From: a virus
DNA: 64,000 nt
Direction: 5' to 3' (one strand)
IMG/VR virus record: IMGVR_UViG_3300018080_000099
Location: 192,001-256,000 of that record
Shown piece after piece: positions 34,166 to 61,871 of the stretch. The notes under the pieces are model-generated. The model ran no database searches and was not told where the DNA came from. It saw nothing but the letters and a program-made list of their open reading frames with translations. Numbering within the stretch: the first letter of the stretch is position 1; every line of letters begins with the position of its first letter. A program made the position numbers and the translations under genes.

Positions 34166-34690
34166 ATGAAAATGAGTTTGTCAAGACAAGCAATTGTCGA
34201 AATTTTTTATGTGTTGAATGAACTGTTGAATGAGGAAAAGTCGAAGTTCAACAAAGGATTTACATTCGCTGTTACGAGAACAATGGATAGTATCAAACCA
34301 GAAGTTCGCGCTATCATCGAGGCTCGGGAGACTGGTGTTGATAAGTACAAAGAGTATGAAGAAAAGAAGATGGAGCTTGTTAGCAAGTATGCTTCGAAGG
34401 ACGAAAATGGAGAGCCAGTTTCTGAAAATAGTCAATGGACTTTTCCGAGTCCTGAAGTAAAGACAAAGGCTCAAGAAGAGTTAAATGCCATAAGGGGAGA
34501 CTACGAAGAAGCCATCCAAGAAAGAGCAAAAGAAATTGACTTGTACAACGAGTTAGCGGCTGAAGAAGTAGAGATAGAAATTTGTCAGACGTCCTTTGAG
34601 AGACTGCCAGATGACCTTCTCCCATATCAGTTTGAAGCTCTTAGACCTATGATAAAAGAAACTGATGAAGAAATTGAGGCACTGATATAA
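34166..34690 (+). CDS. hypothetical protein (possible fibre assembly factor)
   Basis: 174 aa. RBS aaggaggtttgaaATG is identical to the one at 2392. Confidence 0.35.
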   Translation: MKMSLSRQAIVEIFYVLNELLNEEKSKFNKGFTFAVTRTMDSIKPEVRAIIEARETGVDKYKEYEEKKMELVSKYASKDENGEPVSENSQWTFPSPEVKTKAQEELNAIRGDYEEAIQERAKEIDLYNELAAEEVEIEICQTSFERLPDDLLPYQFEALRPMIKETDEEIEALI

Positions 34691-35232
34691 TGGCCGAAAC
34701 AGCTTTTCCAAACCTATTTCATAATGATAAGTGGCAATGCAACTTCTCTAATTTGCCATCCTTAGAATCCAAAGCAGACATGCGAATCTATGATTTGTAT
34801 GTCAAGTCAGTAGTATTCCCAGACTACAACATGGCTGAAATCTATTCTGACATTAAAGGATTCCGTATTAGGCATCCTGTCGGTGGTGTTAATGCTAACA
34901 TCGACCTTTCTCAAATACAGGTTGAATTCAAACTATCAGAAGATATGAAGAACTACATTTATCTGTTTGAGTGGATGCGTTCACTTCGTTATGGACATGT
35001 GGAAGAGTTCAATGCTGAAGAAGAGTTTTTCAGAAAGTACAACATTAAGTCAATCGGTATAAATATATTGGACAACGAGAAGCGACCTATTGCCGTGTGG
35101 CGATTCACCAATGCTTTCTTGTTGACATTAAGCTCACTTTCGTTAGATACGGGTGTGAGTGAGGAGATTACGTTTACAGCGAACTTCTCCTATGAAGAAG
35201 TGAAATACGAGACCAAGAGTGTGTTTAGTTAG
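34690..35232 (+). CDS. hypothetical protein
   Basis: 180 aa ORF, ATG overlapping the upstream stop (TAATG). Confidence 0.35.
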   Translation: MAETAFPNLFHNDKWQCNFSNLPSLESKADMRIYDLYVKSVVFPDYNMAEIYSDIKGFRIRHPVGGVNANIDLSQIQVEFKLSEDMKNYIYLFEWMRSLRYGHVEEFNAEEEFFRKYNIKSIGINILDNEKRPIAVWRFTNAFLLTLSSLSLDTGVSEEITFTANFSYEEVKYETKSVFS

Positions 35233-35240
35233 GAGGATGT

Positions 35241-35624
35241 ATGGAGATTAAAGACTTACTTGAAGTGAAAGTTTTAGTAGATGACAAGGTTATAAAAGAG
35301 ACACTTAACCGAATTGGCATTGCCAATAAGAAAAAGAAAATACTCTATCCAAGTTGCTACTTAATTGAAGAAAATGGAAAGCATTATCTCGCGCACTTTA
35401 AGCAATTGTTCCTGTTGACAAGGGATAGCGCTTATAATGCAGTCTGTGAGGACGACATACTGAGAAGAAATGCAATCGCTTTCTGCCTGAAAAATTGGGG
35501 TTTAATTGAAGTAGAAGATGAAGTTATCGAGCCCCATAACAAATTTGTGTTCGTTTTGCCTCATACACAGAAGCAAGATTGGAAGATTTCGCATAAATTT
35601 AACTTCAGGACTATAAATAGTTAA
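35241..35624 (+). CDS. regA: translational repressor RegA
   Basis: ETLNRIGIANKKKKILYPSCYLIEENGKHYLAHFKQLF, RRNAIAFCLKNWGLIEVEDE and FVLPHTQKQDWKISHKFNF align along the full length with recalled T4 RegA. Confidence 0.85.
   Translation: MEIKDLLEVKVLVDDKVIKETLNRIGIANKKKKILYPSCYLIEENGKHYLAHFKQLFLLTRDSAYNAVCEDDILRRNAIAFCLKNWGLIEVEDEVIEPHNKFVFVLPHTQKQDWKISHKFNFRTINS
35612..35619 (+). promoter_or_regulatory. TATAAATA motif inside the 3' end of regA
   Basis: Exact motif about 25 nt upstream of the small acidic ORF at 35641. Confidence 0.25.
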
Positions 35625-35640
35625 GGGAGCTATAGTGGTT

Positions 35641-35799
35641 ATGGAATATAAAGACAACTACTTAACTAACGTAGACGACCCAGAAAGTGAAGAAGAGTTG
35701 AACTTGTTTAATGAAGAGGACGATGACGAACCTAAAGAATTGGACTTCTATGATGAATCCTTCGTGCCTCCGCCTGAATTTTTCCCTGAGGAAGAATAG
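35641..35799 (+). CDS. small acidic protein (52 aa)
   Basis: MEYKDNYLTN...EEDDDEP. RBS gggag. Below the ORF-track cutoff. Coordinates verified by manual translation. Confidence 0.3.
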   Translation: MEYKDNYLTNVDDPESEEELNLFNEEDDDEPKELDFYDESFVPPPEFFPEEE

Positions 35800-35828
35800 A
35801 CAAACTTTTAATATATAAGGAGAGAGAT

Positions 35829-37487
35829 ATGTTGGAATTTGCTAATTATCTTAAAGAGAGCTACAATGATGATGTCTCTAAGGCAGAGGAAATCATCAAG
35901 CAGAAGTGGGATAAGGTAGTTGCTATCATCAAGGAAGCATTTGATGACCAGTACGCTGACCGAAAGACCGCACTCCACAGAATTCAAAATGAATTCACAG
36001 ACCCAAAAATTGCCCCATCATCCATTGATGTCGATTTCTTGAAGGAGAATATCGACTATGTTATCAATAAGGTTAACTCCCTTGACGAGGGAGAAATCCG
36101 TATTGTTATCAACAACGATGTACAGAAGGGCGGCACTGCACCAAAGGTTCCTGCACTTTCCATTGCCGGTGACGGTATGGAAATGGAATGTAATGAGCCC
36201 GGTAAGAAAAAGAGAGGACGTCCTAAGAAGGTCGTTAAGGAAGCCGAGGAAGAGCCTGAAAAGACTGTTGCCATTACAGTAGATGATACTGTGGTTACGG
36301 TAGAACCTTCCGAAGAATCCGGCCTTGAGAAGAAGGAACACTCCTTTGAATCCGCATCACAAGCAAACAAATTCGCTGACTCTATGAAGGCATTCTTTCA
36401 GGAGCAGGGTTTTGAATTGACTGGTGATGAAGCAGAAGGTGGAGAGGAAGCAGAGGACGCCGCAGCTGAAGAAGAGCCAGCACCTGAGGAAGGTGGTGAG
36501 GAAGCTCCTGCTGAAGAAGAGCCTGCACCTGAGGAAGGTGGAGAGGAAGCCCCAGAGGGTGAAGAAGCCCCTGCCGAAGAAGAGCCTGCACCTGAAGGTG
36601 AAGAAGAAGAGTCTACTCCAGAAGAAAAGGAAGATTCCGAAGAGGAAGTTTCCATTAGCTGGGAAGATGTAGCAGACGTTGACTTGGAAGATGCCGAAGA
36701 AGAAGCTGAAGATGATGTTCCAATGGAGAACATGGACCTGAGCAAACTCGTTGGTAAGCTTGTAAAAGTTGAGAACAACTGGTTCAGCGTCAAGGAAGTA
36801 TCCGAGGACAATCAGCTTGTTTGTTTGAACAAGGAAGGAGAGGAATCTACTTTTGGAATTGATGACATTGCAGAAGCTGAATATGAAGCTGAAGAAGAAG
36901 GCGAGGACGTCGAAGAAGCCAAAGAAGAAGGCGAGGACGTCGAAGAAGCCTGTGCAGAAGAAGAAGCTGAGGACGTCGAAGAAGGCAAGGAAGAAGAAAA
37001 GGAAGATGTAGAAGAAGCCGCCGAAGAACCTGAGGACGTTGAAGAAGCCGCAGAAGAACCTGAGGATGTAGAAGAAGCTAAGGAAGAAGGCGAGGATGCT
37101 GAAGAAGAAGTGATTGAGTTCGAATCAGTCATGACAAAGTATGCTAACCTGTTCTTTGACACCGACCCTGACGATGAAGTCGTTGAGGAAGCAGATGACA
37201 AGGCTAACATCGGTGGACATTCCAACGCTTTGACTGGCAAGCCTTCGGCTCCACCTAAGAAGATGGAGAAAACCAATGCCGCTCCAAAGGCACCGAAGAA
37301 GCCGGGCCCAACAGGAAGCTACACTGCAAAGCCGGGTAAGCCACCTAAAAAGTCTGAAAAGGCTGGAACTGTTCCGAAGGCTCCGAAGAAGCCTGCCCCA
37401 ACGGGAAGCTTCACAAAGAACCCGAACAAGCCACCGAAAAAGACTGATGGCGTACCAGCTCCGGTGATTCCGTCTGAATACAAATAA
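35829..37487 (+). CDS. large acidic repeat protein with an N-terminal AT-hook and a basic PK-rich C-terminus, MxFxEYL-like N-terminus
   Basis: 552 aa, begins MLEFANYLKESYN. KKRGRPKK AT-hook. Long E-rich arrays (EEPAPEEGGEEAP and EEAKEEGEDVEEA units). C-terminus with repeated PKAPKKPGPTGS(Y/F)T. Confidence 0.55.
   Translation: MLEFANYLKESYNDDVSKAEEIIKQKWDKVVAIIKEAFDDQYADRKTALHRIQNEFTDPKIAPSSIDVDFLKENIDYVINKVNSLDEGEIRIVINNDVQKGGTAPKVPALSIAGDGMEMECNEPGKKKRGRPKKVVKEAEEEPEKTVAITVDDTVVTVEPSEESGLEKKEHSFESASQANKFADSMKAFFQEQGFELTGDEAEGGEEAEDAAAEEEPAPEEGGEEAPAEEEPAPEEGGEEAPEGEEAPAEEEPAPEGEEEESTPEEKEDSEEEVSISWEDVADVDLEDAEEEAEDDVPMENMDLSKLVGKLVKVENNWFSVKEVSEDNQLVCLNKEGEESTFGIDDIAEAEYEAEEEGEDVEEAKEEGEDVEEACAEEEAEDVEEGKEEEKEDVEEAAEEPEDVEEAAEEPEDVEEAKEEGEDAEEEVIEFESVMTKYANLFFDTDPDDEVVEEADDKANIGGHSNALTGKPSAPPKKMEKTNAAPKAPKKPGPTGSYTAKPGKPPKKSEKAGTVPKAPKKPAPTGSFTKNPNKPPKKTDGVPAPVIPSEYK
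36470..37450 (+). repeat. three distinct in-frame tandem repeat arrays inside the acidic protein gene
   Basis: About 45-nt units at 36470-36612, about 39-nt units at 36886-37107 and about 63-nt units at 37240-37450. Confidence 0.7.
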
Positions 37488-37518
37488 GGTTGAAAAATCA
37501 TAAACGCTTGATGTGAAA

Positions 37519-37550
37519 AGCCAGCTAGAAATAGCTGGCTTTGATTTTTT
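37519..37550 (+). terminator. rho-independent terminator
   Basis: aagccagcta-gaaa-tagctggctt 10-bp stem followed by TGATTTTTT. Confidence 0.65.
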
Positions 37551-37608
37551 CTGGGGAAGATGTTATCTTAGTATTGTAAATCCTAAGAACCTGTAAGAAA
37601 GGAACCTT

Positions 37609-43680: not shown

Positions 43681-43688
43681 TATAAATA
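43681..43688 (+). promoter_or_regulatory. TATAAATA motif upstream of the HNH gene
   Basis: Exact motif 19 nt upstream of the 43707 ATG. Confidence 0.25.
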
Positions 43689-43706: not shown

Positions 43707-44549
43707 ATGAAAGTTATTTGTAGCAATTGTAATAAAGAAATAGAAAGAAAACCTTCAAATATAAAAAGAAGTAAAAACATTTTTTGTTCGAGGGAATGTA
43801 GATATGATTGGCAAAAGTATAATTTTTGTGGGGAAAAGAATCCTAACTTTGGGAATGTTTGGAGTGATGAGCAAAAAATAAAACAATCTGAAATTGTGAA
43901 AAGTAAAATGAATAGTGATATTGTTAAGTTTAAGTGTGGTTCCGCAAATAGAGGTAAAAAGTTTAGTCAAGAGATACGAGATAAAATATCCAAAGGCCAT
44001 GAAGGATTAACTTATAAACCAATGTCAGATGAGGGTAGAAGAAATATTGGAATTGCTTCTTCTAAAAAGTTTACAGATGATTATAAAAAAGCTCATAAGA
44101 AAAAAATGATTGATTTAGGGTACTGGGTTTCTGAAAGTGATAAGTCTGATTGGGAGATTTATTTTGATGAATCTAATTGGATAGAAAGAATGTTCGATAG
44201 AGCTAATGATAAAGAACAAATTCTTTTGAAGGAGTTTGGTGTTTTTAACTGTAGAAATAATAGTAAAGGAGTTGTTCGTGACCATGCTTATTCAAGAAAA
44301 AGTGGTTTTGAAAATAAAGTTTTTCCTGAAATATTAAGGCATCCTTGTAATTGTAGAATTATAACTCATTCTGATAATACTAAAAAAAGAAAAGCAAGGT
44401 ATGTTGATGCTGATAGTATAACTCTACAGTCATTATTTAACGAAATAATTAAATACGAAGGCAAATGGGATGAGCAACAGAAATGTTTAAGTTTAATTAA
44501 TGATTATTTTAGTGGAAAGAGATGGAATAGAAATGTTACTAAAAGTTAA
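43707..44549 (+). CDS. HNH-type homing endonuclease with NUMOD3 repeats
   Basis: GEKNPNFGNVWSDEQKIKQSE and SANRGKKFSQEIRDKISKGH resemble NUMOD3. N-terminal Cys cluster CSNCNKEI...FCSRECRYDW. C-terminal VRDHAY...N...HPCNCRIITHSDN is HNH-like. The region is clearly AT-richer than its flanks. Confidence 0.55.
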   Translation: MKVICSNCNKEIERKPSNIKRSKNIFCSRECRYDWQKYNFCGEKNPNFGNVWSDEQKIKQSEIVKSKMNSDIVKFKCGSANRGKKFSQEIRDKISKGHEGLTYKPMSDEGRRNIGIASSKKFTDDYKKAHKKKMIDLGYWVSESDKSDWEIYFDESNWIERMFDRANDKEQILLKEFGVFNCRNNSKGVVRDHAYSRKSGFENKVFPEILRHPCNCRIITHSDNTKKRKARYVDADSITLQSLFNEIIKYEGKWDEQQKCLSLINDYFSGKRWNRNVTKS

Positions 44550-45129
44550 AATGAAAAATCCTTTTTGGGTAGCGAGCGATTGTCATTGGTATCATACTAA
44601 TATTATTAAGTATTGCCAAAGACCTTTTACTAATGAAGGCGACCTTGACGATTCAGGTAACTGGATTTCAGAAGAAGTTGCTCAGAAAAGCACCGAGCTT
44701 ATGAACGAGACAATGTTCAATAATTGGCAGAGCCTAATCGGAGAAAAAGACAAGGTTTTCTTTTTGGGCGACTGGGTTATTGGTGCTGAGAATAAATACA
44801 AAACAGGTCAGATACTCCACGACCAACTGCATGGGCGCAAAATTTTCATTCAGGGAAACCACGACGAACACATCCACAGGTTCACGAACATCCGAGTTAT
44901 CGACGGAACTATTCAGGTTAGTTACAAAGGCCTGAACTTCATGATGTCACATGAGCCTATTTGGGAACACTCCCCAGACATTGACATCTATATCTGTGGA
45001 CATATACATAACAATGAGGAAAACGAAAGACTGTTGCCTAATATGATAAATGTATCAATGGAGATGACAGACTACAAGCCTGTCCACATTGATGCCATCA
45101 TTGAGAAAGTAGGAGTGCAACATGATTAG
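44533..45129 (+). CDS. calcineurin-like metallophosphoesterase
   Basis: SDCHWYH, GDWV, GNHDEH and CGHIHN are metallophosphatase motifs. Alternative start at 44551 (MKNPFW). Confidence 0.6.
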   Translation: MLLKVKMKNPFWVASDCHWYHTNIIKYCQRPFTNEGDLDDSGNWISEEVAQKSTELMNETMFNNWQSLIGEKDKVFFLGDWVIGAENKYKTGQILHDQLHGRKIFIQGNHDEHIHRFTNIRVIDGTIQVSYKGLNFMMSHEPIWEHSPDIDIYICGHIHNNEENERLLPNMINVSMEMTDYKPVHIDAIIEKVGVQHD

Positions 45130-45904
45130 GTTTCTTACAGGTTGGTCAAATCCCGGCGGCTCAACAGTCGCCTTCATTAACTTGGTCAACGCACTGAACA
45201 AATATGGACACGAATCTATCCTCGGAGGCCCTCACACATGGCACTTAGATAAGTGTAAATCCGAACAGGTAGTGCGCGGCAATAAGCTATTAGTCCATAA
45301 AGATGACATCATTGTAGCACATTACATGAGAATCTTTGTGGCTCGCCCGCCTGTGAAAGGATTCTTCTTGTCGAGCCAAGAGCAGGAATTTTTTCCACTG
45401 AATACAATTGACTACGGCATCTTTGATAAGATACACTACGTCAGTGAACATCATAAAGATTTTCATGGCATTGCCGGGCATCCCCACTTCATTATCCCGA
45501 ACATTTTAGAAGACCTAAAACCCAATAGTAAGCCAACTAAAAAGATTGGTGGCATTATTGGCACGATTGACAAAAGCAAAAGAGTTAGTACTTGTATCAA
45601 GGAAGCTCTTGAAGATGGATGTGACAAGGTTCTTATCTACGGAATGGTTTCAGACCCGTGGTACTGGCAGGATAAAATAACCAAGATGATTGACGGAAGG
45701 AAAGTCCAGTATATGGGATTTGAGGATGACAAGCAAAAAATGTACGATTCAGTTACCGATGTCTACGCAGGCTTTGATGTTCGGGGAAATGTGGAAGGCG
45801 AGTGCAATCTCACTGAAACAAACTTCCACGGGCAGTCTTTCCGAAAGGAAGAATTGGACAAGAAGTCTATTGTCAAAAGATGGGTGAAGGAGTTGGGAGT
45901 ATAA
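45122..45904 (+). CDS. putative glycosyltransferase
   Basis: 260 aa ORF heading the glycan cluster. No family-specific motif recognised. Confidence 0.3.
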   Translation: MIRFLTGWSNPGGSTVAFINLVNALNKYGHESILGGPHTWHLDKCKSEQVVRGNKLLVHKDDIIVAHYMRIFVARPPVKGFFLSSQEQEFFPLNTIDYGIFDKIHYVSEHHKDFHGIAGHPHFIIPNILEDLKPNSKPTKKIGGIIGTIDKSKRVSTCIKEALEDGCDKVLIYGMVSDPWYWQDKITKMIDGRKVQYMGFEDDKQKMYDSVTDVYAGFDVRGNVEGECNLTETNFHGQSFRKEELDKKSIVKRWVKELGV

Positions 45905-46593
45905 TGGACAAAATATCTGTCATTATCCCATGCTACAATCATGGGAAGCATTTAAGGGAAGCGATTGAATCGCTGTATTCCAACTGGCTGACGATTGAGA
46001 TGGATGTGATGGTTATTGATGATTGTAGTACTGACGATTCTTTTGAGGTTGCTCAAAAGCTTTCAAAGGAATTTGGATTCAAGACTCATCAGATGTCAAA
46101 GAACTCAAAGCCTGCAAAGGTTCGAAACACAGCAATCGGGATGATTGATGGAAACATTATTGTCTGCTTAGACGGTGATGATAAGTTACCCCCTCATTAC
46201 CTTCAAGAGAATTACAACAACATTCTCATGTATCAAGTTGACGTTTCGTATAACAACTCCGTGATGTTCGGCTCAACGAACCGGGAGTTGAATTGGCCTG
46301 AGTTTAACATTGAGACGCTTAGAAGAACCCCTTTCATTCATTGTACTTCAATGTTTCGAAAGGAAGCATGGGAGAAGGTTGGAGGGTTTGATGAGTCAAT
46401 GGTAGACGGCTGGGAAGATTATGATTTCTGGCTGAGAGTTGCCAATGCAGGATTTAAGTTCAAGAAATGTAATCAGACGTTTCTTTACTACCGACAAAGT
46501 GGTAATGAAAATAGAGATGTACAAGCCAAGGCGAAGCTTGATAAAATTCGTGCTTATATGAGAAACAAACACAAAGGGTTTTACTTGGGGTGA
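45904..46593 (+). CDS. family 2 glycosyltransferase
   Basis: MDKISVIIPCYNHGKHL...VIDDCSTDDS is the GT2 signature. TAATG overlap. Confidence 0.7.
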   Translation: MDKISVIIPCYNHGKHLREAIESLYSNWLTIEMDVMVIDDCSTDDSFEVAQKLSKEFGFKTHQMSKNSKPAKVRNTAIGMIDGNIIVCLDGDDKLPPHYLQENYNNILMYQVDVSYNNSVMFGSTNRELNWPEFNIETLRRTPFIHCTSMFRKEAWEKVGGFDESMVDGWEDYDFWLRVANAGFKFKKCNQTFLYYRQSGNENRDVQAKAKLDKIRAYMRNKHKGFYLG

Positions 46594-46610
46594 GTATGAA
46601 AGAGAATAAA

Positions 46611-47351
46611 ATGAAAGTCGTTATTCCAGTGTACAACGCCGAAAAGTGGATTCAGAAATGTATCTGGTCTTTGTACAATCAGTCTTATCAGAACTGGGAA
46701 GCCGTTATTGTCAATGATGCGTCAACTGACAAGACGCTGGATGTTATTAAGGATTTCATGAAAGACATTCCAGCTGAAGAGGTTCACAAAAAGAAAAGGT
46801 TCCGTGTCCTTGACAGAACCATGAATGTAGGAGCCCTTGAAAATATCGACTATGGTACGGAGCTACTCTGTGACGATGATGAGGACGTAGTTGTGCTGTT
46901 GGACGGCGATGACTGGCTGGCGGCAAATGATGTCCTGACACATCTGAACGAACTGTATCAAGATGAAACTTGGCTAACCTACGGACAGTTTCAGTTCAAT
47001 AGTAACGGAAACATTTCAAGTAACCGACAGATAACCGACACCCGAACGTATAGAACGAAGCAGTCATTTTGTTCCTCACATTTGCGAACATATAAGTATA
47101 AGATATGGAAACGCATAAAGAAGGACGACCTTAAGAATGGTGCCGGTAAGTATTATCCGATGGCATGGGATTTGTCCATCATGTACCCATTGATTGAGAT
47201 GGCCGGACCAAAAAGAATCAAGTGTGCTGATAAGGTGATGTACATTTACAATAACCAGAATCCAATCAACGACCATAAGAAAAACTACAAGCTCCAAGTG
47301 AGCTTAGACTTTGAAATCAGAAAGAAGCCACAGTACGCAGAACTACCATGA
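46611..47351 (+). CDS. family 2 glycosyltransferase
   Basis: MKVVIPVYNAEKWI...VIVNDASTDKT. Alternative starts at 46596 or 46590 (GTG). Confidence 0.65.
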   Translation: MKVVIPVYNAEKWIQKCIWSLYNQSYQNWEAVIVNDASTDKTLDVIKDFMKDIPAEEVHKKKRFRVLDRTMNVGALENIDYGTELLCDDDEDVVVLLDGDDWLAANDVLTHLNELYQDETWLTYGQFQFNSNGNISSNRQITDTRTYRTKQSFCSSHLRTYKYKIWKRIKKDDLKNGAGKYYPMAWDLSIMYPLIEMAGPKRIKCADKVMYIYNNQNPINDHKKNYKLQVSLDFEIRKKPQYAELP

Positions 47352-48421
47352 AAGTTATTATCAACAGAAGCGGCGGTCCCTTAAAAATCCCAGAAATCAG
47401 AAAAGAGATTCCGTGGGATGGGAAGCAGTACATACTTAACGATATTCTGACTAACAAGTATCGCAAATACTTGGAGGTTGTCGATGTAGACAAACAAAAA
47501 GAGATTGAGGACTTGCAAGTTAAGGTCAGAGATTTGAAGGTTAATCTTGACAATACCATGATGGAAAACGACAAGCTCCAAGATTTCATTGGCAAGCTTC
47601 GTGACAATACAAAGATTCCTTGTTTGGACTTCTTGTATTCATTCCACTTCAACGAAAATATGGACGAGGCAGTTGAAAGACTGAGATGTTCCATTGAAAG
47701 CATACGGCACCAGAATGTTCGTGTCTGTGTTTGCAATACTTCCAAAAAGAGTATCAAAAGCAAGCTCCGTGGGCTGGGAAAGATTGCATATTTTCATAAT
47801 CCTTTGGAGCTGAATGTTTACAACAAGCCCAAGACAATCAATCTAGGAGTTAAGAAACTTGTCAAGACAGACTACTTCTTTCTCTCAGACATTGATTTGT
47901 ACTACCATCCGGACTTCGTTGCCAACATGGGAGTTGTTCTAAAGCTGACTGGGAATGTTCCTTACAGGATTGTTTTTCATAACAACAACATGGGACCCGG
48001 AGATTATCCTGAAAGTATTGAGGACTGTCACAATCTTTTCACAAACTCCAAAGATACCTCGAGGTCAATGAAGGGATTGGCACCGGGCAACGGATTAATT
48101 TACCGTCCTTCTTTTGAAGCCATTGAGGGGTTTGATGAAATGTATGTAGGGTACGGCCCAGAGGACGCGGACTTCAATTATAGAATCCGCAAGATATGTG
48201 AGTACATAGAAATAGATTTGGAAGGCTTCAACACGTATCATCTTTTCCATGCGAACCAAACTAGAGACTCACAAGAGTACGCTAACAATAGAATCAGATG
48301 TGACTACATGATGAAAATGGATAGAAAGAATAACTACAACATCATAAAGTCCGGGCAGATTGAACCGCCCAGAAAGCTAAAGTTTGTTATAGACGAGAAC
48401 ATTCGGGAAGTGGTAATATGA
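47348..48421 (+). CDS. glycosyltransferase with a beta4GalT-type (GT7-like) motif and an N-terminal coiled coil
   Basis: FLSDIDLYY DXD-like. EGFDEMYVGYGPEDADFNYRI resembles the GWGGEDDDxxxR block. Confidence 0.45.
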   Translation: MKVIINRSGGPLKIPEIRKEIPWDGKQYILNDILTNKYRKYLEVVDVDKQKEIEDLQVKVRDLKVNLDNTMMENDKLQDFIGKLRDNTKIPCLDFLYSFHFNENMDEAVERLRCSIESIRHQNVRVCVCNTSKKSIKSKLRGLGKIAYFHNPLELNVYNKPKTINLGVKKLVKTDYFFLSDIDLYYHPDFVANMGVVLKLTGNVPYRIVFHNNNMGPGDYPESIEDCHNLFTNSKDTSRSMKGLAPGNGLIYRPSFEAIEGFDEMYVGYGPEDADFNYRIRKICEYIEIDLEGFNTYHLFHANQTRDSQEYANNRIRCDYMMKMDRKNNYNIIKSGQIEPPRKLKFVIDENIREVVI

Positions 48422-49185
48422 TTATTCCAATGCTAAAAGGTGGAGTGGGAAACCAACTATTCCAAATTGCATGTGCATATGCTTATGCGAAAAAGCATGG
48501 CACAGACTTTGCCATTAACTATAGCCTGAGCTTTTGTCCTAATCAGGGATTTTCAGCACCCAAATACAAGGACACGCTTTTCAAGAACATATCTGTCACA
48601 ACAGTACATCCTCATAAAATCATGAAGGAGAACGGGAACGCCTACCGAGAACTTCCATTTCTTGAAGGCGACTTCATTTTGGATGGGTTCTTTCAGTCTG
48701 AGAAGTTCTTTGCGGATTGTGTAGACGAGATTAAAGAACTGTTTGTGTTCCCTGAAAATGTCAAGAGCGCTGTAGACAAATTCATGAAGGTAAAACTAAG
48801 TACGCCATCCAATCATCCCATTGCCGGAGTTCATATTCGAAGGGGAGACTACAAAAAATTCAGTCACGAATATATTCTCAATGGTTCGGAATACTACTTA
48901 GCCGCCGCCAAGCATCTGCCGGGTTTTGTGTCAGTGGTTTGTACAGACGACTGGAGTTCAGTGAGTAAGGAAATGACATTTGCCAAAGCCGAGAAGTCAC
49001 CATTCACAGACGAGGTTCACGACCTTTACCTTCTTTCCCAGTGTGATGCAGTTGTCATGTGTAACAGCAGTTTCTCATGGTGGGCGGCATTTCTTGGCAA
49101 AGATAAGAAGGTCATTGCTCCGAACAACTGGTTTGTCCACAAGTCCGCAGAGGACATGTATTGTAAGGATTGGATAAGAATATGA
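48418..49185 (+). CDS. alpha-1,2-fucosyltransferase (GT11)
   Basis: GGVGNQLFQIACAYAYA matches GT11 motif I (LGNQMFQYAFA). Size and the FFQSEKFF block are consistent. Confidence 0.7.
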   Translation: MIIPMLKGGVGNQLFQIACAYAYAKKHGTDFAINYSLSFCPNQGFSAPKYKDTLFKNISVTTVHPHKIMKENGNAYRELPFLEGDFILDGFFQSEKFFADCVDEIKELFVFPENVKSAVDKFMKVKLSTPSNHPIAGVHIRRGDYKKFSHEYILNGSEYYLAAAKHLPGFVSVVCTDDWSSVSKEMTFAKAEKSPFTDEVHDLYLLSQCDAVVMCNSSFSWWAAFLGKDKKVIAPNNWFVHKSAEDMYCKDWIRI

Positions 49186-50015
49186 TGGAAGTGAAAATAG
49201 TTGATAGGAACTTCGCTCACGCATATCTATTTGGCAACGGAGACTTGAAGATGTCTGCCAAAGAGATGCAGTGGTATAGGGGCAATGATGCGAGAGACAT
49301 TTGCTTTTTTACAGACATGACTCTGGGAGAAGTGAATAACTTTCAACTTCCACGGAGCCGTATCAATGTGGCATGGCTTTTGGAACCACCTTCAGTTGCT
49401 TTACAAACGTACAATTGGATTAAGTCAAATTACGAGTTCTTTGACTACGTTTTGACTTACAACAAGGAGTTGCTTTCGATTTCACCTAAGTTCAAATGGT
49501 ATCCACACGGCGGCTGTTGGATTTATCCTAAGGACTGGAAAGTCCATCGGAAGTCCAAAGACGTTTCCATGATTGCTTCCAACAAGAACTTTACAGCTGG
49601 ACATCGTTTGAGACATGATGTGATGAATCGGCTCGGTAGTAACATAGACTTAGTATGTGGACGAGGGCATAAACCCTTTGAATACAAACTCGATGTTTTG
49701 AAAGATTATAGATACTCCATAGTCATAGAGAATGGCAGATACGAAACATACTTCACAGAGAAGCTTATAGACTGCTTCATGACCGGAACAGTTCCGATTT
49801 ATTGGGGATGTTCGCTTAAGGGTTTGTTTGAGGAAGGCGGCATCTTGTACTTCGAAACAATAGATGAGCTACAAGAAATTCTGAGGAAAATCCGTGAGGG
49901 TGAGATTGATTATGACAAGATGCTTTGTTCGGTGTACTACAATGTCAAAGTCGCAGAACGATATGCAATAACTGAGAACTGGATTTACGAGAACTTCATA
50001 AAGAGGATAGTATGA
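49182..50015 (+). CDS. alpha-1,3/4-fucosyltransferase-like (GT10)
   Basis: YRYSIVIENGRYETYFTEKLIDCFMTGTVPIYWG matches the GT10 motif FYLAFENS...Y(I/V)TEK...G(A/T)VPVV. ATG at 49182 chosen over the upstream TTG. Confidence 0.6.
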   Translation: MMEVKIVDRNFAHAYLFGNGDLKMSAKEMQWYRGNDARDICFFTDMTLGEVNNFQLPRSRINVAWLLEPPSVALQTYNWIKSNYEFFDYVLTYNKELLSISPKFKWYPHGGCWIYPKDWKVHRKSKDVSMIASNKNFTAGHRLRHDVMNRLGSNIDLVCGRGHKPFEYKLDVLKDYRYSIVIENGRYETYFTEKLIDCFMTGTVPIYWGCSLKGLFEEGGILYFETIDELQEILRKIREGEIDYDKMLCSVYYNVKVAERYAITENWIYENFIKRIV

Positions 50016-51361
50016 TTAAGCTAGTAATTTTCGACCTCGATGGTGTCCTAACCGAATCAAAAGACTTACACTTCAATGCTTTGAATAGAGCTTTGGAGGA
50101 TTTCGGGTTCACCGCTATCACTTACAAAGAACACATCTCCAAGTATGATGGTAAGCCGACCGCAGTGAAGCTTGCGATAAAGGGAGTCGATGAAGAACTA
50201 CACCTGAAGATTAATGAGCGCAAGCAGGAAATCACGGCGGACCTTTTGGATAAGAAGATTAAGAAGGACGAGAAGTTTATTGACTTGTTCAAACGGCTGA
50301 AGCAAGACGGATACATTATCAACGTGGCATCCAATTCTGTGATGTACACGATACAGTTGGTTCTTTTCAAGATGGGAGTTATGCGGTATGTCGACCACAT
50401 CGTATCAAATCAAGATGTGGAATTTGGCAAACCTCATCCAGAGATGTACATGAAGTGTATGGTACATTCTAAGGTCGGCCCAAAGGACGCAATCATTATT
50501 GAGGATTCCTACGTGGGAAGGCAGGGTGCCTTCAACTCTGGGGCTCATCTGTGTGCAGTCCGAAATCCTGATGAAGTAACATACGAGTTCATTAAAAACA
50601 ATATTGCAATCGCAAACGGTGAGAAACCGAAGTGGAAGGGGAACAATATGAATATACTTATTCCTATGGCTGGCGCTGGTAGTCGGTTCACAAAGGCGGG
50701 ATTTACTTTCCCGAAGCCTTTGATTGAAGTAAACGGAAAGCCCATGATTCAGGTTGTCGTGGACAATATCAACATTGAAGGGAACTACATCTTCATTGTT
50801 CGCAAGGAACACTACGAGAAGTACAATCTGAATTACATGCTTGATATGATTGCGCCGGGCTGTAAGATTGTTCAGGTTGACCGTTTGACGGAAGGCGCGG
50901 CATGTACAACCCTTCTTGCCAAGGAATACATCGACAATGACGAACAGCTTTTGATTGCCAACTCAGACCAGTGGATTGACTGGGATAGCTCAGACTTCAT
51001 GTATTCCGTTCAGGGAAACCATGTGGACGGCGGAGTTCTGACATTCCCGAATGCTCATCCGAAGTGGTCTTATGCCAAGGTTGACAAGAACGGCTTTGTG
51101 ACTGACATTAAGGAGAAGAAGGTTATCTCCAACAAAGCAACTGTTGGTATCTATCATTGGAAACGAGGTTCGGATTATGTGAGGTTCGCTGAGCAAATGA
51201 TAGAGAAGGATGTTCGTGTCAATGGTGAGTTCTATGTGGCTCCTGTCTACAATGAAGCTATTGCCGACGGAAAGAAGTTTAAGATTTATGATGTGAAGAA
51301 GATGATGGGACTGGGAACACCGGAAGACTTGGACATCTTTTTGAAGGAAAAGCTTGGATGA
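50012..51361 (+). CDS. bifunctional HAD-phosphatase / sugar-phosphate nucleotidyltransferase
   Basis: N-terminal LVIFDLDGVLTESKD (HAD motif I). C-terminal half MNILIPMAGAGSRF...KPLIEVNGKPMI is the NTP_transferase signature. Confidence 0.6.
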   Translation: MIKLVIFDLDGVLTESKDLHFNALNRALEDFGFTAITYKEHISKYDGKPTAVKLAIKGVDEELHLKINERKQEITADLLDKKIKKDEKFIDLFKRLKQDGYIINVASNSVMYTIQLVLFKMGVMRYVDHIVSNQDVEFGKPHPEMYMKCMVHSKVGPKDAIIIEDSYVGRQGAFNSGAHLCAVRNPDEVTYEFIKNNIAIANGEKPKWKGNNMNILIPMAGAGSRFTKAGFTFPKPLIEVNGKPMIQVVVDNINIEGNYIFIVRKEHYEKYNLNYMLDMIAPGCKIVQVDRLTEGAACTTLLAKEYIDNDEQLLIANSDQWIDWDSSDFMYSVQGNHVDGGVLTFPNAHPKWSYAKVDKNGFVTDIKEKKVISNKATVGIYHWKRGSDYVRFAEQMIEKDVRVNGEFYVAPVYNEAIADGKKFKIYDVKKMMGLGTPEDLDIFLKEKLG

Positions 51362-51969
51362 AAATTGTAGTAGTCGGGATGTTTCGAGCAGGCAGTACGG
51401 TTTTGTTCAACATGATTCGTTATATGCTCATTGAGGAATATGGGAAAGACGAAGTGTACTCATGTTATTATCCTAAGCGCAATCCGAAGAAAGAGAAAAA
51501 ATATGTTGTGATGAAACAGCATGACTTTGATGCCGGCCTTCTTGAAGAATCCGATATGGTGTTTACTACAAGAAGGGACATCCGAGATGTCGTAGCATCA
51601 CTCATTCGGAGAGATGGGCGACATCGGTGGAAGTCCATTCCGAAAGTTTGTCAGTGGGCCAAGGACTGTTACGACGGATGGAAAAAACATTCAACGTATG
51701 AGTTTGTTTACGAAAGATATAAAGCCAATCCCTTGAAAGTCATCAAAGAAGTCGGTGCCATATTGAACATTGACTGTAAGGCTAGGAAGATTCAAGAAAA
51801 GTTGGAGGCCCTTAAAAAGCCACGACAACCAAGGGAAACTCTGATAATGTCAGCCAAACACGTTACAGATGGCTCAGTCCATTCATTTGCAAAGACATTG
51901 GACGAAAAGGAAATTAAAATTATAGAGGAAATGGCAAATGATTTACTGTATAGGAAACAGCCATGTTAA
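51358..51969 (+). CDS. sulfotransferase
   Basis: VGMFRAGSTVLFNMI resembles the 5'-PSB loop. TRRDIRDVVASLIRR resembles the 3'-PB motif. Confidence 0.55.
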   Translation: MKIVVVGMFRAGSTVLFNMIRYMLIEEYGKDEVYSCYYPKRNPKKEKKYVVMKQHDFDAGLLEESDMVFTTRRDIRDVVASLIRRDGRHRWKSIPKVCQWAKDCYDGWKKHSTYEFVYERYKANPLKVIKEVGAILNIDCKARKIQEKLEALKKPRQPRETLIMSAKHVTDGSVHSFAKTLDEKEIKIIEEMANDLLYRKQPC

Positions 51970-52564
51970 TACTTTTTCAAACTCCAAACCGTTATGCTTC
52001 AGCTTTCATAACAAGCATTTTGTTGGCCACAGTATAGGACCAATAATCGCTTATAACTTTAGGAAGAATCATCTTTCTAAAGTGCTGAACTATTTGAAGT
52101 CCACGAGTATCCAAAAGAAAAATGACTTCGTGACATTGGTTGTTGGGGAAGTTGACTGTAGACTTCATTTACCAAGGCAGGCAGATTTACAGAAAAGAAA
52201 GGACAAAGATATGGCTGAAGAATGTACTCAAAGATTGATGGAATGTTATGATGAGTTAAGAGATAAAGGATTCAGAGTACTTGTTTGTGGCACGCATCCT
52301 ACCACAACTTATACTGAAAAAGATATTGACAATGTAGTAGTCGGCCCGATATACGGAGATGTTGAGAGAAGAAATCAGATATGTTTGTACTGGAATGAGT
52401 CATTGAAAACCATGAGTGAAGAGCGGAATATCCCCTTCATTTCTATCTATAAATATCTTGTCGATGCAAACAACATTACTAAGATGGAATTCTATCAGGA
52501 CTATTGCCATCTTAAAAGCGATAGAGTTTTTGAATTTATCCTGAGGGAACTGGAATCATTATGA
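51938..52564 (+). CDS. hypothetical protein, possibly SGNH/GDSL-like hydrolase
   Basis: N-terminus MIYCIGNSHV weakly resembles SGNH block I. 208 aa. Confidence 0.3.
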   Translation: MIYCIGNSHVNTFSNSKPLCFSFHNKHFVGHSIGPIIAYNFRKNHLSKVLNYLKSTSIQKKNDFVTLVVGEVDCRLHLPRQADLQKRKDKDMAEECTQRLMECYDELRDKGFRVLVCGTHPTTTYTEKDIDNVVVGPIYGDVERRNQICLYWNESLKTMSEERNIPFISIYKYLVDANNITKMEFYQDYCHLKSDRVFEFILRELESL

Positions 52565-53316
52565 AATTGAGCTTCGATGATGTTAGAAACACGCAACAGG
52601 GCGCACCAGCTTTGATAGTCGCCCACGGGCCAAGTTCAAATGAATATTTGGACAAAATCGCTTACTACAAGAATCTGGGGTTTGTCATTGTAGGAACCAA
52701 TGACTGGTTCCTTTTTCACGATGAAGAACCTCATTATTCGGTAATGGCTAATAGTGTCTTTACAATTCAGACGAAACATGTTATCTTTAATAGATACAAT
52801 ACTAAGTTGGTGTATGCTGATTCAGTCGATGCGACTCCTAAGGAAATGGCAGAACAGGTTTTGAAAGTTGATTACCTTCCTTACGACCAACGCCACTTCA
52901 TGGGAATGCCGTGTGGATGCGGAGCCTGCTGTTCAAGGATAGACGGTTCAAGGCTTACGATTCAGGAAGAACTCCAAAAGTACTGTAACGCGGACAAGCA
53001 TTATGGAACGGGTGACACAGTTGCCCTCCATCAGATTGCTTTTGCAATCCTGTTAGGATGCAATCCGATTTACTTTGTGGGAGTTGACTTGGACTACCGA
53101 CTTGGCTTTGCAAGAAACACAGGAAACAAGACTTCAAAATCAGTTCACATTGGAGCTATAAACGATTATCGAGATAACATCCTAAAGGATATGCAGACAA
53201 TTAAAGAAATGGTTACTCCTTTGGGAGTGAAGATTGTAAACCTGAATAAAGCATCCACATGGGATGTGTTTGAAATTGGAGAGATTGATGAAGGTTTTCA
53301 GCCTAACGCCAGCTAG
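52561..53316 (+). CDS. Maf/DUF115-like or GT42 (CstII-like) nonulosonic-acid transferase (tentative)
   Basis: LIVAHGPSSNE and GCNPIYFVGVDLDY resemble CstII VIIAGNGPSLKE and GYKEIYLSGIDFYQ. Adjacent to the NeuA-like gene. Confidence 0.4.
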   Translation: MKLSFDDVRNTQQGAPALIVAHGPSSNEYLDKIAYYKNLGFVIVGTNDWFLFHDEEPHYSVMANSVFTIQTKHVIFNRYNTKLVYADSVDATPKEMAEQVLKVDYLPYDQRHFMGMPCGCGACCSRIDGSRLTIQEELQKYCNADKHYGTGDTVALHQIAFAILLGCNPIYFVGVDLDYRLGFARNTGNKTSKSVHIGAINDYRDNILKDMQTIKEMVTPLGVKIVNLNKASTWDVFEIGEIDEGFQPNAS

Positions 53317-53953
53317 AGGCGGCTCAAAAAGAATTCCCAACAAAGCTGTGGTTGACCTCTGTGGACGACCGCTTATTGAATGGACTCTGAGAGATTCAAT
53401 ACAGTCCAACCGGATTGACAAATCATATGTCAGCACGGATTCACAACTCATAAAGGACGAAATTCGGCAATTGCCCGTCGAAGTTGTGGATAGGCCTTCA
53501 GAGTTTGCTGGGGATAAATCTAGCTCTGAGTCGGTGGTAAAACATTGGCTGAGCACGCTGGACGAGAAGCCCGATATTATTGTGATGCTTCAGTGTACCG
53601 GACCATTCAGGCAGAGAGAAACTCTTGATAATGCCATTCAGAAACTGATAGATGAAAAGGCTGACAGTCTTTTTTTTGGCTCAGATTTGGGAAGGTGGAT
53701 TTGGTCAACAAGCAATGTTCCTCTAAATTACGACTACCGCAACCGAATAATGACTCAAGACAAAGAATGGGAGCTTGTGGAAGGCAGCGATTACATTTTC
53801 ACACGAAAGCTCTTTGAGGAAACTGGTTTTAGGCTTGGTGGAAAAATTGTTCATTACAAGATAGAAAAGCTGGAGAGTATAGATATAGACGACAAAGACG
53901 ATTTGATAATCGCTCGTGGAGTGGCTCAAACAAAGGGGTATATGTATGATTAA
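53288..53953 (+). CDS. CMP-nonulosonic acid synthetase (acylneuraminate cytidylyltransferase family)
   Basis: Start at in-frame ATG 53288. LTPARGGSKRIPNKAV is the family signature. Confidence 0.7.
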   Translation: MKVFSLTPARGGSKRIPNKAVVDLCGRPLIEWTLRDSIQSNRIDKSYVSTDSQLIKDEIRQLPVEVVDRPSEFAGDKSSSESVVKHWLSTLDEKPDIIVMLQCTGPFRQRETLDNAIQKLIDEKADSLFFGSDLGRWIWSTSNVPLNYDYRNRIMTQDKEWELVEGSDYIFTRKLFEETGFRLGGKIVHYKIEKLESIDIDDKDDLIIARGVAQTKGYMYD

Positions 53954-55530: not shown

Positions 55531-55817
55531 TAATCAGGGTTGACATAGACGAAACTATATGTGAGAAGGTTGACAATGCCCGGTATCAAGATGCTACGCC
55601 GATACCCGAAAACATCGCCAAGATAAACCAACTATATAATGATGGACACACCATCATCTACTGGACGTCAAGAGGAATGACTACAGGGTTGGATTGGTCT
55701 GCTGTTACGCAAAGACAGCTCGTAGAGTGGGGTTGCAAGTTCAACAAGCTGGAAATGGGTAAGCCTTTCTATGACATGTTGATTTGTGACAAGAGTAAAA
55801 GGATTGAAGAAATATGA
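55527..55817 (+). CDS. small HAD-like hydrolase (tentative)
   Basis: MIIRVDIDETIC start resembles the HAD DxD motif. 96 aa. Confidence 0.3.
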   Translation: MIIRVDIDETICEKVDNARYQDATPIPENIAKINQLYNDGHTIIYWTSRGMTTGLDWSAVTQRQLVEWGCKFNKLEMGKPFYDMLICDKSKRIEEI

Positions 55818-56464: not shown

Positions 56465-56466
56465 AA

Positions 56467-61863: not shown

Positions 61864-61871
61864 TATAAATA
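61864..61871 (+). promoter_or_regulatory. TATAAATA late-promoter motif upstream of the tmRNA
   Basis: aactataaataatta, nearly identical to the context at 51-65. Confidence 0.35.

Follow-up and report, generated by a model that had tools for sequence, protein, structure and literature searches.

A conserved, strongly acidic protein family beside regA in a divergent T4-like phage lineage: a candidate prohead-core or internal head protein

Gene order and expression signals at the locus

The window analyzed here is a stretch of 64,000 nucleotides from an IMG/VR virus record (IMGVR_UViG_3300018080_000099, positions 192,001 to 256,000). The target gene lies downstream of regA, and the left edge of the window holds two genes of head assembly. 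The features discussed below are as follows (window coordinates, strand).

2-25, +: end of the gp21 prohead protease gene, last 7 codons (EIQRKTA, then stop); the rest of the gene lies beyond the left edge of the window
93-890, +: gp22 scaffolding protein (phrog_237, head scaffolding protein, E 3e-18)
35241-35624, +: regA translational repressor (PF01818, E 1e-22; phrog_242, E 1e-31)
35612-35619, +: T4-type late promoter-like box TATAAATA, upstream of the small acidic ORF and the target
35641-35799, +: small conserved acidic ORF, 52 aa from its ATG; alternative GTG start at 35635
35819-35822, +: Shine-Dalgarno GGAG, 6 nt ahead of the ATG, read from the sequence
35829-37487, +: target ORF, 552 aa plus stop, read from the sequence
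35829-35858, +: capsid-targeting-sequence-like tag, residues 1-10, MLEFANYLKE, ending in L-K-E, a gp21-type site
35829-36113, +: helical N-terminal domain (N-domain), residues 1-95, which defines the family (alignment and AlphaFold2)
36204-36230, +: AT-hook KKKRGRPKK, residues 126-134, R-G-R-P core with Lys/Arg flanks
36261-36419, +: predicted strand-strand-helix module, residues 145-197 (KTVAITVDDTVVTVEPSEESGLEK..FADSMKAFFQEQGFEL), a conserved alignment block
36452-36565, +: acidic array 1, EEPAPEEGGEEAP-type (Tandem Repeats Finder, TRF, 45-nt unit, 2.5 copies)
36729-36878, +: predicted helix plus three-strand module, residues 301-350, a conserved block ending IAE↓A
36885-37107, +: acidic array 2, E(D/E)VEEA-type (TRF, 30-nt unit, 7.1 copies)
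37119-37166, +: residues 431-446, FESVMTKYANLFFDTD, a degenerate copy of the family block SLSFAKLANRY(M/L)EED
37224-37484, +: basic Pro/Lys-rich tail, residues 466-552, two units of about 30 aa and a conserved end ..IPSEYK
37517-37552, +: intrinsic terminator, 11-bp stem, 4-nt loop and T-run (hairpin 37517-37542)

Translation of the ORF showed that a preliminary description of this DNA had been exact about the 552-residue protein and right about the order of its regions. The clean terminator that it reported was found as well, as an 11-bp stem followed by a T-run. It had also placed the gene right after regA; regA is real and lies upstream, but the two are not directly adjacent, because the 52-aa acidic ORF stands between them. 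This small ORF, annotated as a gene on the source contig and probably cotranscribed with the target, is found at every related locus, where it has the motif DENDxEDFxDFExYYGF..EPKELxF. At all loci it ends in ELDF-like residues, and T4 gp33 ends in ..TLDFLL; its identification as a gp33 homolog was rejected, since hhalign gave no support and the likeness was limited to that ending.

The target ORF is coding and under purifying selection: the first 100 codons, compared between the window and L005, showed 36 synonymous and 19 nonsynonymous codon differences. Boxes resembling the T4 late promoter numbered 18 in the window (2.25 expected), of which the coding strand carries 17, and they stand ahead of structural and tagged genes. 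A box was present at the equivalent position in 17/18 sequences (the window, 16 IMG/VR loci and L002). A scan for sigma-70 promoters found sites to be rarer than chance and thus gave no sign of early promoters. From the motif and its distribution we infer that the target is a late gene, the box ahead of it being the putative active promoter.

An exhaustive representative search of a 1.84-billion-protein library yielded a family of 74 representatives; a word-indexed protein search was nearly blind to it (1, then 6 matches). All members belong to one divergent T4-like lineage. At 17 IMG/VR loci the gene order is fixed (fibre-like genes, a gp19-like gene, regA, the small acidic ORF and the target), with regA in the same upstream position in 16 of the 17 related loci, and the identical protein also occurs in public contigs, the longest of 264 kb. 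The target matched no family in Pfam or PHROG scans, and megablast of the 12-kb context gave no match. When the whole protein and the family consensus were searched by tblastn against 50,697 phage records, nothing credible was returned (best E 0.4), and the family is without a cultured relative in that set. The target is a real, conserved and hitherto unnamed gene of an uncultured T4-like phage of 264 kb.

Modular architecture of the target protein

The protein contains 124 Glu, 43 Asp, 55 Lys and 5 Arg residues (net charge -107, pI 4.1). Its Asp plus Glu content of 30% (mean 15.3%, standard deviation 4.2) makes it the most acidic of the 74 proteins in the window. With a mass of 60 kDa, it had been overstated as "giant."

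The N-domain alignment (A1) holds 42 sequences with a mean column identity of 49%. AlphaFold2, run on residues 1-205 from an alignment of seven sequences, produced a helical model of moderate quality (pLDDT 56), with helices predicted over residues 2-95 (pLDDT 60 to 85). Foldseek of this model against the PDB returned nothing below E 2, and the N-domain profile returned nothing below E 0.39 against PDB sequences. With hhalign, the N-domain scored a probability of less than 1% against T4 gp67, gp68, gp21, gp22 and Inh and showed no relationship with T4 IPI, IPII and IPIII.

Beyond the N-domain, the AT-hook previously noted in this protein was confirmed as a sequence motif. An RGRP/RGRK core stands at this position in 49/71 family members, and most of the others have a Lys-rich patch there. 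Two small modules are possibly folded, at low model confidence. For the module at about residues 145 to 197, strands were predicted at 147-151 and 154-158 and a helix at 176-192 (pLDDT <50 over most of it); it is duplicated in the family member P0006. For residues 301-350, a helix was predicted at 304-313 and strands over 320-343 (pLDDT about 66 to 70), possibly forming an SH3-like fold. An L/I-x-E sequence occupies the column at the end of this module (IAE349) in 14/20 homologs. These two modules, like the scaffold-like motif at residues 431-446, had gone unmentioned in the preliminary description.

TRF bore out the three repeat arrays described earlier, two of them acidic and one in the basic tail. 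Array 1 lies within a wider acidic linker of about residues 199 to 299 (net charge -48 over residues 206-300, pLDDT <50). The tail repeat has a 90-nt unit present in 1.8 copies (37283-37447, PKAPKKPGPTGSYTAKPGKPPKK / PKAPKKPAPTGSFTKNPNKPPKK), and residues 471-552 have a pI of 10.3 and a net charge of +16; homologs carry two to four tail units with the terminus conserved. The acidic arrays are of low complexity, and they and the basic tail are predicted to be disordered. A comparison of repeat number across relatives, which the preliminary description had proposed, showed that the acidic arrays differ among homologs in sequence and unit number, and that even strains with no other difference can vary by one unit: the variant P0077 equals the target minus one 10-aa unit of array 2 (EEGEDVEEAK).

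A capsid-targeting-like tag and a gp22-like motif

The first ten residues of the target follow the design of the tag common to T4 IPI, IPII, IPIII and Alt, with aromatic residues at positions 4 and 7, an aliphatic residue at position 8, Glu at position 10 and a small residue after it. The target sequence MLEFANYLKE↓S and the IPII/IPIII sequence MKTYQEFIAE↓A (the arrow marks the site) match at four functional positions. In T4, residues 4 and 7 of the tag serve targeting and residues 8 and 10 serve processing (PMC9026906). The target has F4 and Y7 where IPII and IPIII have Y4 and F7, a match of pattern that does not imply a targeting function. The gp21-type site is L8-K9-E10↓S11, and L-x-E occupies that column in 18 of 20 close homologs; more distant family members keep the aromatic pattern and lack Glu at position 10. 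F4 and L8 do not vary in the alignment, and the model places the first N-domain helix over residues 2-12.

The tag is not confined to this family. A strict tag pattern was found in 13 of the 74 genes of the window (0.14 expected) and in two more by eye; at least 15 unrelated genes in these 64 kb thus begin with it, compared with three T4 internal-protein genes that have a start of this type in the T4 sequence examined. It also occurs on several genes of relatives. Among 29 tags of the lineage, 15 have an L/I-x-E sequence within residues 6-13 (1.9 expected, P value = 4e-11). The tagged genes include ordinary-looking enzymes (cupin, nucleotidase and kinase-like), in which the tag lies outside the homologous part. 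Because its codons vary synonymously, the tag is selected at the peptide level. A shared RNA-level element, such as a RegA operator, was considered for this N-terminus and rejected on the same synonymous variation and on a Phe-to-Trp change in relatives.

The phage also encodes the partners that such a tag would require in a T4-like system. The gp21 end at 2-25 matches the Peptidase_S77 C-termini of close relatives (..SEIQRKNV in L022 and ..EEIQQKKL in L028, each followed by stop) and stands in the same place upstream of gp22; in relatives a full Peptidase_S77 gene adjoins gp22 (PF03420, E 5e-23). The gp23 maturation site that aligns with T4 FLTE↓A reads VLGE↓A, with L-x-E also in four aligned relatives, and the L/I-x-E specificity of gp21 appears, from these aligned sites, to be kept in the lineage.

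A further likeness to head assembly is internal to the family proteins. The window gp22 ends in ..EEMDFATRANRYLDE, a C-terminal motif conserved in 25 orthologues and common to the target family, where the block SLSFAKLANRY(M/L)EED resembles the gp22 scaffold C-terminus (..FAxxANRY..). T4 gp22 ends in ..VYAKVASRF, and the lineage form is ..FAE(K/R)ANRYLDE. An HMM of the gp22 C-terminus (motif form ..(S/T)FAx(K/R)ANR(Y/F)(L/M)..) matched the family members P0003 (E 4.9e-5), P0006, L007 and P0009 (E 5e-5 to 4e-2); unrelated ORFs gave no match at E<0.1. The target's own degenerate copy, VMTKYANLFFDTD, was not matched; the peptide of the putative borrowed motif is ..FAKLANRYMEED. No overall homology of the target with gp22 was found (Pfam, PHROG and hhalign of the N-domain against the T4 and window gp22 proteins, probability <1%).

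A possible internal head protein and its alternatives

We give a probability of about 0.5 to the reading that this divergent T4-like jumbo phage uses the target as a lineage-specific protein of the prohead core or the head interior. The tag, the scaffold-like motif and the DNA-binding patches suggest that the target is taken up into the head and that it probably travels with the DNA. An internal protein copackaged with DNA had been one suggestion of the preliminary description, and it gains support from the tag with its gp21-type site, the late promoter and the encoded gp21 and gp22, as well as from two sequence motifs of the family, the gp22-like block and the conserved AT-hook.

Under this reading, the target would be synthesized late from the TATAAATA promoter. 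Its amphipathic tag (F4, Y7, L8 and E10), of T4-like design, would dock it on the gp22 scaffolding core, a step suggested by the similarity and enrichment of the tag. The copy of the gp22-end motif would presumably provide a second contact by binding the partner of the scaffold C-terminus, the shell interior or the portal. The gp21 protease would then cleave behind E10 to release the tag and may also act at further conserved sites, IAE349 among them. Upon DNA entry, the AT-hook and the histone-H1-like Pro/Lys tail would keep the target bound to the AT-rich genome (42% G+C). Both polyacidic arrays, which are predicted to be disordered, may serve as length-variable polyanionic spacers, comparable to the polyacidic tail of gp67, and may mask the target's own basic segments. 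Exit through the tail with the DNA is a speculation, conceivable because the small modules sit on long disordered linkers. A stronger version makes the target the main DNA-bound internal "chromatin" protein of the jumbo T4-like head, HMGA/H1-like, loaded by its tag and borrowed scaffold motif and injected with the genome and the tagged enzymes, after which the arrays would decoy host DNA-binding defence or nucleoid proteins while the basic parts coat the DNA; we regard this version as unlikely.

The T4 internal-protein system is a close parallel: there, too, the phage encodes the gp21 protease and the gp22 scaffold, the tag is common to otherwise unrelated proteins and the expression signals are late. 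Unlike the T4 internal proteins, the target has no sequence homology with them beyond the tag, is six times larger than IPII and possesses an AT-hook, repeat arrays and a scaffold-like motif, and its packaging is a prediction. T4 IPII and IPIII are basic, whereas the target is strongly acidic overall. Charged low-complexity segments are normal in the T4 core, the tail of gp67 being polyacidic (..EGEEPEDEDEDEDDED..) and that of gp68 polybasic; gp67 is among the mature T4 head proteins (PMC7697877). The target differs from gp22, gp67 and gp68 in that a bona fide gp22 is encoded separately and the target's N-domain has no detectable homology with them, and the target has DNA-binding motifs absent from gp22 and gp67.

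If the internal-head reading is correct, the lineage extends T4 capsid-interior addressing to a large modular DNA-binding protein and to more than 12 other genes, enzymes included. It would then offer a natural catalogue of proteins delivered with the genome, which would be candidates for roles in anti-defence and takeover. Engineers of protein delivery would gain a second capsid-targeting sequence, and the lineage would be a testable case of how a DNA-filled head makes room for disordered segments of both charges, polyacidic and polybasic. An AT-hook would, moreover, be placed inside a phage particle; in a full-text search of the literature on bacteriophage virion internal proteins, "AT-hook" was not found among the 12 best-ranked matches.

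Several observations count against the internal-head reading. The HMM fails to recognize the target's own gp22-like motif because of its degeneracy, the target's L/I-x-E sites are not enriched (5, compared with 8 expected, with none in the acidic arrays or basic tail), and Glu at position 10 is missing from distant family members. The tag could be structural and uncleaved, because F4 and L8 never vary and the predicted first helix spans residues 2-12. A protein with a net charge of -107 would sit awkwardly, in electrostatic terms, beside packed DNA, the tagged cupin, nucleotidase and kinase-like enzymes would be unusual capsid cargo, and the target resembles no T4 head-core protein in sequence or fold (Foldseek and hhalign).

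The target may instead act outside the virion, as an HMGA/HMGB-like architectural or regulatory protein that binds phage or host DNA in the infected cell, in late transcription, replication or nucleoid remodelling, for example, with the small acidic protein and regA. An AT-hook with an acidic tail is the layout of HMGA; after the N-domain, no short motif is conserved more widely in the family than the AT-hook, and the gene is fixed beside regA and the small ORF with the gp33-like ending. The likeness to HMGA/HMGB and histone H1 comprises the canonical R-G-R-P hook with its K/R flanks, a long acidic region in the same chain and, for H1, a tail rich in (A/P)PKK-type motifs; it is one of motif and composition, not homology. 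HMGA has three hooks, compared with one in the target, which occurs in a phage context with a capsid-targeting-like tag, its DNA binding being a prediction. A role confined to the infected cell would leave unexplained why unrelated genes share the tag, why a motif like the gp22 C-terminus is present and why the late-promoter context is that of structural genes, and the small ORF has no profile similarity to T4 gp33; we consider such a role unlikely. An accessory of the scaffold, which would coassemble with gp22, perhaps help to set the size of the large head of a 264-kb genome, and be destroyed by gp21 and expelled before DNA entry without ever contacting DNA, would account for the gp22-like motif, the tag and an acidic, low-complexity composition like that of gp22 and gp67. 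T4 gp22, gp67 and gp68 are indeed degraded to peptides (PMC9958956). A protein that never meets DNA would have little evident use for the conserved RGRP hook and the H1-like tail, however, and large fragments of the target would be expected to survive a T4-like protease because it has five L/I-x-E sites, none of them in the arrays or the basic tail, so that we doubt this explanation.

The preliminary description had also suggested a DNA mimic like Ocr; in such a reading the polyacidic arrays would soak up host DNA-binding defence proteins after injection or synthesis. The target shares with T7 Ocr, ArdA and T4 Arn a very acidic composition and a phage origin, its negative charge is extreme, and T4 IPI, an injected anti-restriction protein, is a precedent for an injected inhibitor (PMC3012670). 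The comparison goes no further: Ocr, ArdA and Arn are compact and folded, whereas the charge of the target lies in predicted disordered repeats of variable number, and Pfam, PHROG and PDB searches matched it to no known family or solved structure. Known DNA mimics are folded, with a fixed geometry of carboxylates. The arrays are conserved among homologs in neither sequence nor length, and the parts that are conserved (the N-domain, AT-hook and basic tail) would, as judged from their motifs, bind DNA rather than imitate it. The mimic proposal is thus unsupported, and we consider it very unlikely. An external decoration or surface polyanion of the capsid, Hoc-like, is least probable; a late gene that closes a structural block and repeats that vary as in surface proteins would fit it, but the Pfam scan found no Ig-like or other decoration domain, and the tag, the AT-hook and the scaffold-like motif all point to the interior of the head.

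The target gene and its N-terminal tag

The ORF at 35829-37487 (+ strand) encodes 552 residues, as first read. With 124 Glu, 43 Asp, 55 Lys and 5 Arg, the protein has a net charge of -107 and a pI of 4.1, and its Asp and Glu content of 30% was the highest among the 74 window proteins (mean 15.3%, sd 4.2). The preliminary description had reported three repeat arrays, an AT-hook, a basic C-terminus and a terminator, and all were borne out: Tandem Repeats Finder recovered the arrays, KKKRGRPKK occupied residues 126-134, the final 82 residues had a pI of 10.3, and an 11-bp stem with a T-run lay 3' of the stop codon. The gene had also been placed right after regA; regA (PF01818 match, E 1e-22) is indeed upstream, with a conserved 52-aa acidic ORF intervening. 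Purifying selection acts on the gene: over the first 100 codons, the target and one relative showed 36 synonymous and 19 non-synonymous codon differences. Two long antisense ORFs across the arrays are Ser-rich and mirror the GAA-rich repeats.

Target gene and immediate surroundings
35241-35624, regA
35641-35799, +, small acidic ORF
36452-36565, +, array 1, 45-nt unit (Tandem Repeats Finder)
36885-37107, +, array 2, 30-nt unit, about 7 copies (Tandem Repeats Finder)
37283-37447, +, tail repeat, 90-nt unit, 1.8 copies (Tandem Repeats Finder)
37517-37542, terminator

The N-terminus MLEFANYLKE, earlier described as shared by a family, proved to be real and the most informative feature of the target. 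The strict pattern M-x(1,2)-F-x2-[YFH]-[YLF] opened 13 of the 74 window genes (0.14 expected), and two more (4265 and 43085) fitted by eye. Counted without the target, at least 14 window genes on the + strand opened with the tag in the form M-x-F-x-(D/E)-(Y/F/H)-(Y/L/F)..E.

Starts of tagged genes, all +
3541, 4265, 6184, 38264, 39460, 40102, 41091, 41496, 42691, 63172, 63475
3868, cupin
43085, P-loop kinase-like protein
62472, 5'-3' deoxyribonucleotidase

The cupin, the kinase-like protein and the nucleotidase are unrelated to one another, and the profile match of the nucleotidase started only at residue 14. Relatives also carried the tag on several genes (e.g., 7 of 24 in the related locus L008). 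Its codons varied synonymously and its Phe was replaced by Trp in relatives, so selection has acted on the tag as a peptide; selection at the RNA level was ruled out on the same grounds.

T4 internal proteins IPII and IPIII start MKTYQEFIAE followed by A (NC_000866), and the target starts MLEFANYLKE followed by S. In IPIII, residues 4 and 7 are the main determinants of targeting and residues 8 and 10 those of processing, and the prohead protease gp21 cleaves after L/I-x-E (PMC9026906). In the target tag, positions 4 and 7 are aromatic, position 8 is Leu and position 10 is Glu. Of 29 tags found across the lineage, 15 contained [LI]-x-E within residues 6-13 (1.9 expected, P value = 4e-11). The gp23 maturation site, FLTE↓A in T4, aligned with VLGE↓A in the window and retained L-x-E in all four relatives aligned, so a gp21-type protease specificity appears to be kept. 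If the tag is a capsid-targeting sequence, the cargo set would be unusually large and enzymatic.

A divergent T4-like phage and its late-promoter boxes

The window represents a block of structural genes from a highly divergent T4-like myovirus and encodes a gp22 scaffold (phrog_237), gp23, gp15, a protein of the tail-tube family and the large terminase; its major capsid protein, gp23, was about 35% identical to those of the best cultured phages, which were cyanophages. Public contigs as long as 264 kb also encode the target protein. Close relatives showed the T4 gene order of portal, small core-like ORF, Peptidase_S77 gp21 protease (E 5e-23), gp22 and gp23, and window nt 2-25 encode EIQRKTA and a stop, matching the protease C-terminus in those relatives.

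The T4 late-promoter box TATAAATA was found at 18 sites in the window (2.25 expected), all but one of them on the coding strand, and stood before structural genes. It lay directly upstream of several tagged genes (6184, 39460, 43085 and 62472) and of the target operon. A further box (61864-61871) was found just 5' of a phage-encoded tmRNA at 61899-62258 (+) with tag peptide AEDYAYAQAA (ARAGORN; Rfam RF00023, 121 bits, E 9e-49). After the tagged-gene cluster, a long same-strand run of genes (43707-61852, +; late-promoter boxes at 43681 and 52448) looks, from N-terminal sequences alone, like sugar or nucleotide-sugar metabolism and glycosyltransferases.

A family with a scaffold-like motif and variable charged arrays

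The target had no match in Pfam, PHROGs, PDB sequences or 50,697 cultured-phage records. HMMER, run exhaustively over 1.84 billion representatives, returned 74 relatives (19 below 1e-30), and an IMG/VR pattern scan returned 17 family loci; no source searched gave a name for any member. One member, P0081 (NCBI MDD5650594.1), is annotated as hypothetical and comes from a 21.9-kb contig assigned to a "Candidatus Nanoarchaeia archaeon" MAG; the contig is most likely phage DNA placed in the wrong bin.

Gene order in the loci was fixed (fibre-like genes, a 174-aa gene, a gp19-like gene, regA, the small acidic ORF, the target gene), and of 18 sequences examined, 17 had the late-promoter box ahead of the small acidic ORF. 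The gp19-like tail-tube-family gene (34690-35232, +; phrog_45, E 1e-19) ends the fibre block and adjoins regA, far from the sheath region, in all related loci. The small acidic ORF carried the motif DENDxEDFxDFExYYGF..EPKELxF at every related locus (L002 and L005-L021) and often stopped directly after ELxF, an end that recalls ..TLDFLL of T4 gp33; hhalign found no relationship between the two.

Every member has a helical N-terminal domain of some 100 residues (alignment A1), behind which come a basic patch and acidic sequence. Closer members keep the whole architecture: N-domain, (I/L/M)E(M/T)ES, AT-hook, strand-strand-helix module, first acidic array, I(S/N)WED(V/I), a helix and three-strand module, second acidic array, SLSFAKLANRY(M/L)EED, two to four basic Pro/Lys units and a terminal ..IP(S/K/N)EYK. 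Of 71 members, 49 carried a K/R-flanked RGRP or RGRK core at one shared position, distant ones of 200 residues among them, and those lacking it mostly had a Lys-rich patch there. The L002 homolog (73% identical; 997-nt contig) has an in-frame TGA (935-937) in place of an Arg codon of the AT-hook (RG-R-P), and homologous sequence resumes in frame beyond it; possible causes are a sequencing error, a nonsense polymorphism and recoding.

The basic tail units comprised about 30 residues each, rich in (A/P)PKK-type motifs. Acidic units varied among homologs (EEPEDAG in many, EEPAPEEGGEEAP and E(D/E)VEEA in the target, ETPEE in others), with 0 to 10 EEPEDAG-type units per homolog. The strain variant P0077 was 100% identical at aligned residues and lacked exactly one 10-aa unit of array 2 (EEGEDVEEAK), indicating that the repeat number of this array changes within the population. 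AlphaFold2 predicted helices at residues 2-95 (pLDDT 60-85). It modelled residues 147-192 as a strand-strand-helix module (mostly below 50), residues 304-343 as a helix with three strands (about 66-70), and both acidic arrays and the tail as low-confidence coil.

In the target's lineage gp22 ends ..EEF(T/S)FAE(K/R)ANRY(L/M)DE, and T4 gp22 ends ..VSVYAKVASRF. This end motif is kept from T4 (..VYAKVASRF) to the window gp22 (93-890; C-terminus nt 849-887; ..FAERANRYLDE) and was seen in the gp22 genes of L022-L049. Judged by its sequence, the family block ..SLSFAKLANRY(M/L)EED.. after the second acidic array is the same motif. An HMM built from gp22 C-termini and run on 1,094 sequences (family members and all ORFs of the fetched loci) matched only gp22 proteins and family members (P0003, E 4.9e-5; P0006, 1.8e-4; the L007 member, 5e-4; P0009, 1.5e-3; more weakly P0038, P0047, P0007 and P0012), with no unrelated ORF at E < 0.1. 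A 124-aa ORF of L038 opened with the gp22-end-like ..NRLTEAANRFLGEED (E 0.14). In phages with both genes known, the two copies were alike (e.g., ..LAEAANRFMMD in gp22 and ..YVAAANRFMPDD.. in the family protein). The target copy, FESVMTKYANLFFDTD (residues 431-446), aligns with the family block and fell below detection by this HMM; the argument is thus firmer for the family than for the target. By analogy with scaffolding proteins generally, the motif would bind either the portal or the inside of the shell; the literature searched contained no direct statement on the T4 gp22 C-terminus.

A candidate internal head protein and its alternatives

The target is conserved and late in context, its tag has the design of the T4 capsid-targeting sequence and is statistically tied to a gp21-type site, and the phage encodes both protease and scaffold; the family has the scaffold C-terminal motif, a conserved AT-hook and charge arrays of variable length that are predicted to be disordered. 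We give a probability of about 0.5, from sequence evidence, to the following reading. The target would dock on the scaffolding core through its tag and scaffold-like motif, and gp21 would trim it behind E10, with a possible second cut at the conserved IAE349. The AT-hook and basic tail would hold it on incoming AT-rich DNA (42% G+C), it would probably be ejected with the genome, and the polyacidic arrays would act as spacers or internal counter-charges. An internal or co-packaged protein had been suggested before; tag, protease, scaffold motif, AT-hook and late context fit it, and packaging itself is the inferred part.

An HMGA-like DNA-binding regulator acting inside the infected cell would account for the AT-hook, acidic tail and regA neighbourhood but not for the tag, scaffold motif or late context, and we consider it unlikely. 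Tag and scaffold motif would also suit a scaffold accessory of the assembly phase only, a rather improbable reading that leaves the DNA-binding elements unexplained. The DNA mimic raised as a possibility in the preliminary description has only the charge in its favour; the acidic parts show the least conservation and are predicted to lack structure, whereas known mimics are folded, making this very unlikely. Nothing specific favours an external decoration protein, which we regard as extremely improbable.

Capsid-targeted internal and core proteins of T4 offer the closest functional parallel, although the target is homologous to none. It joins features that are split in T4 (the internal-protein tag, the gp22 terminus, the acidic tail of gp67 and the basic tail of gp68) and adds an AT-hook; the top 12 results of a full-text search for AT-hooks in bacteriophage virion internal proteins included no paper with "AT-hook". 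The main value of the target is as a way into what appears to be a greatly enlarged capsid-cargo system of an uncultured jumbo T4-like lineage. The ends of gp67 (..EGEEPEDEDEDEDDEDSDD..) and gp68 (..RAQRKRKKALKRRKALGLS) are precedents for charged low-complexity core proteins, and gp67 is among the proteins inside the mature head (PMC7697877). The end of T4 gp67, EGEEPEDEDEDEDDED.., is close in composition to the EEPEDAG units of the target family. At the gp67 position, between portal and protease, related loci have a small ORF without an acidic tail (L028, 6243-6425; L022, 6255-6434); BLASTP between the two gave no significant similarity (E 1.2). The polyacidic function may have shifted from one protein to another.
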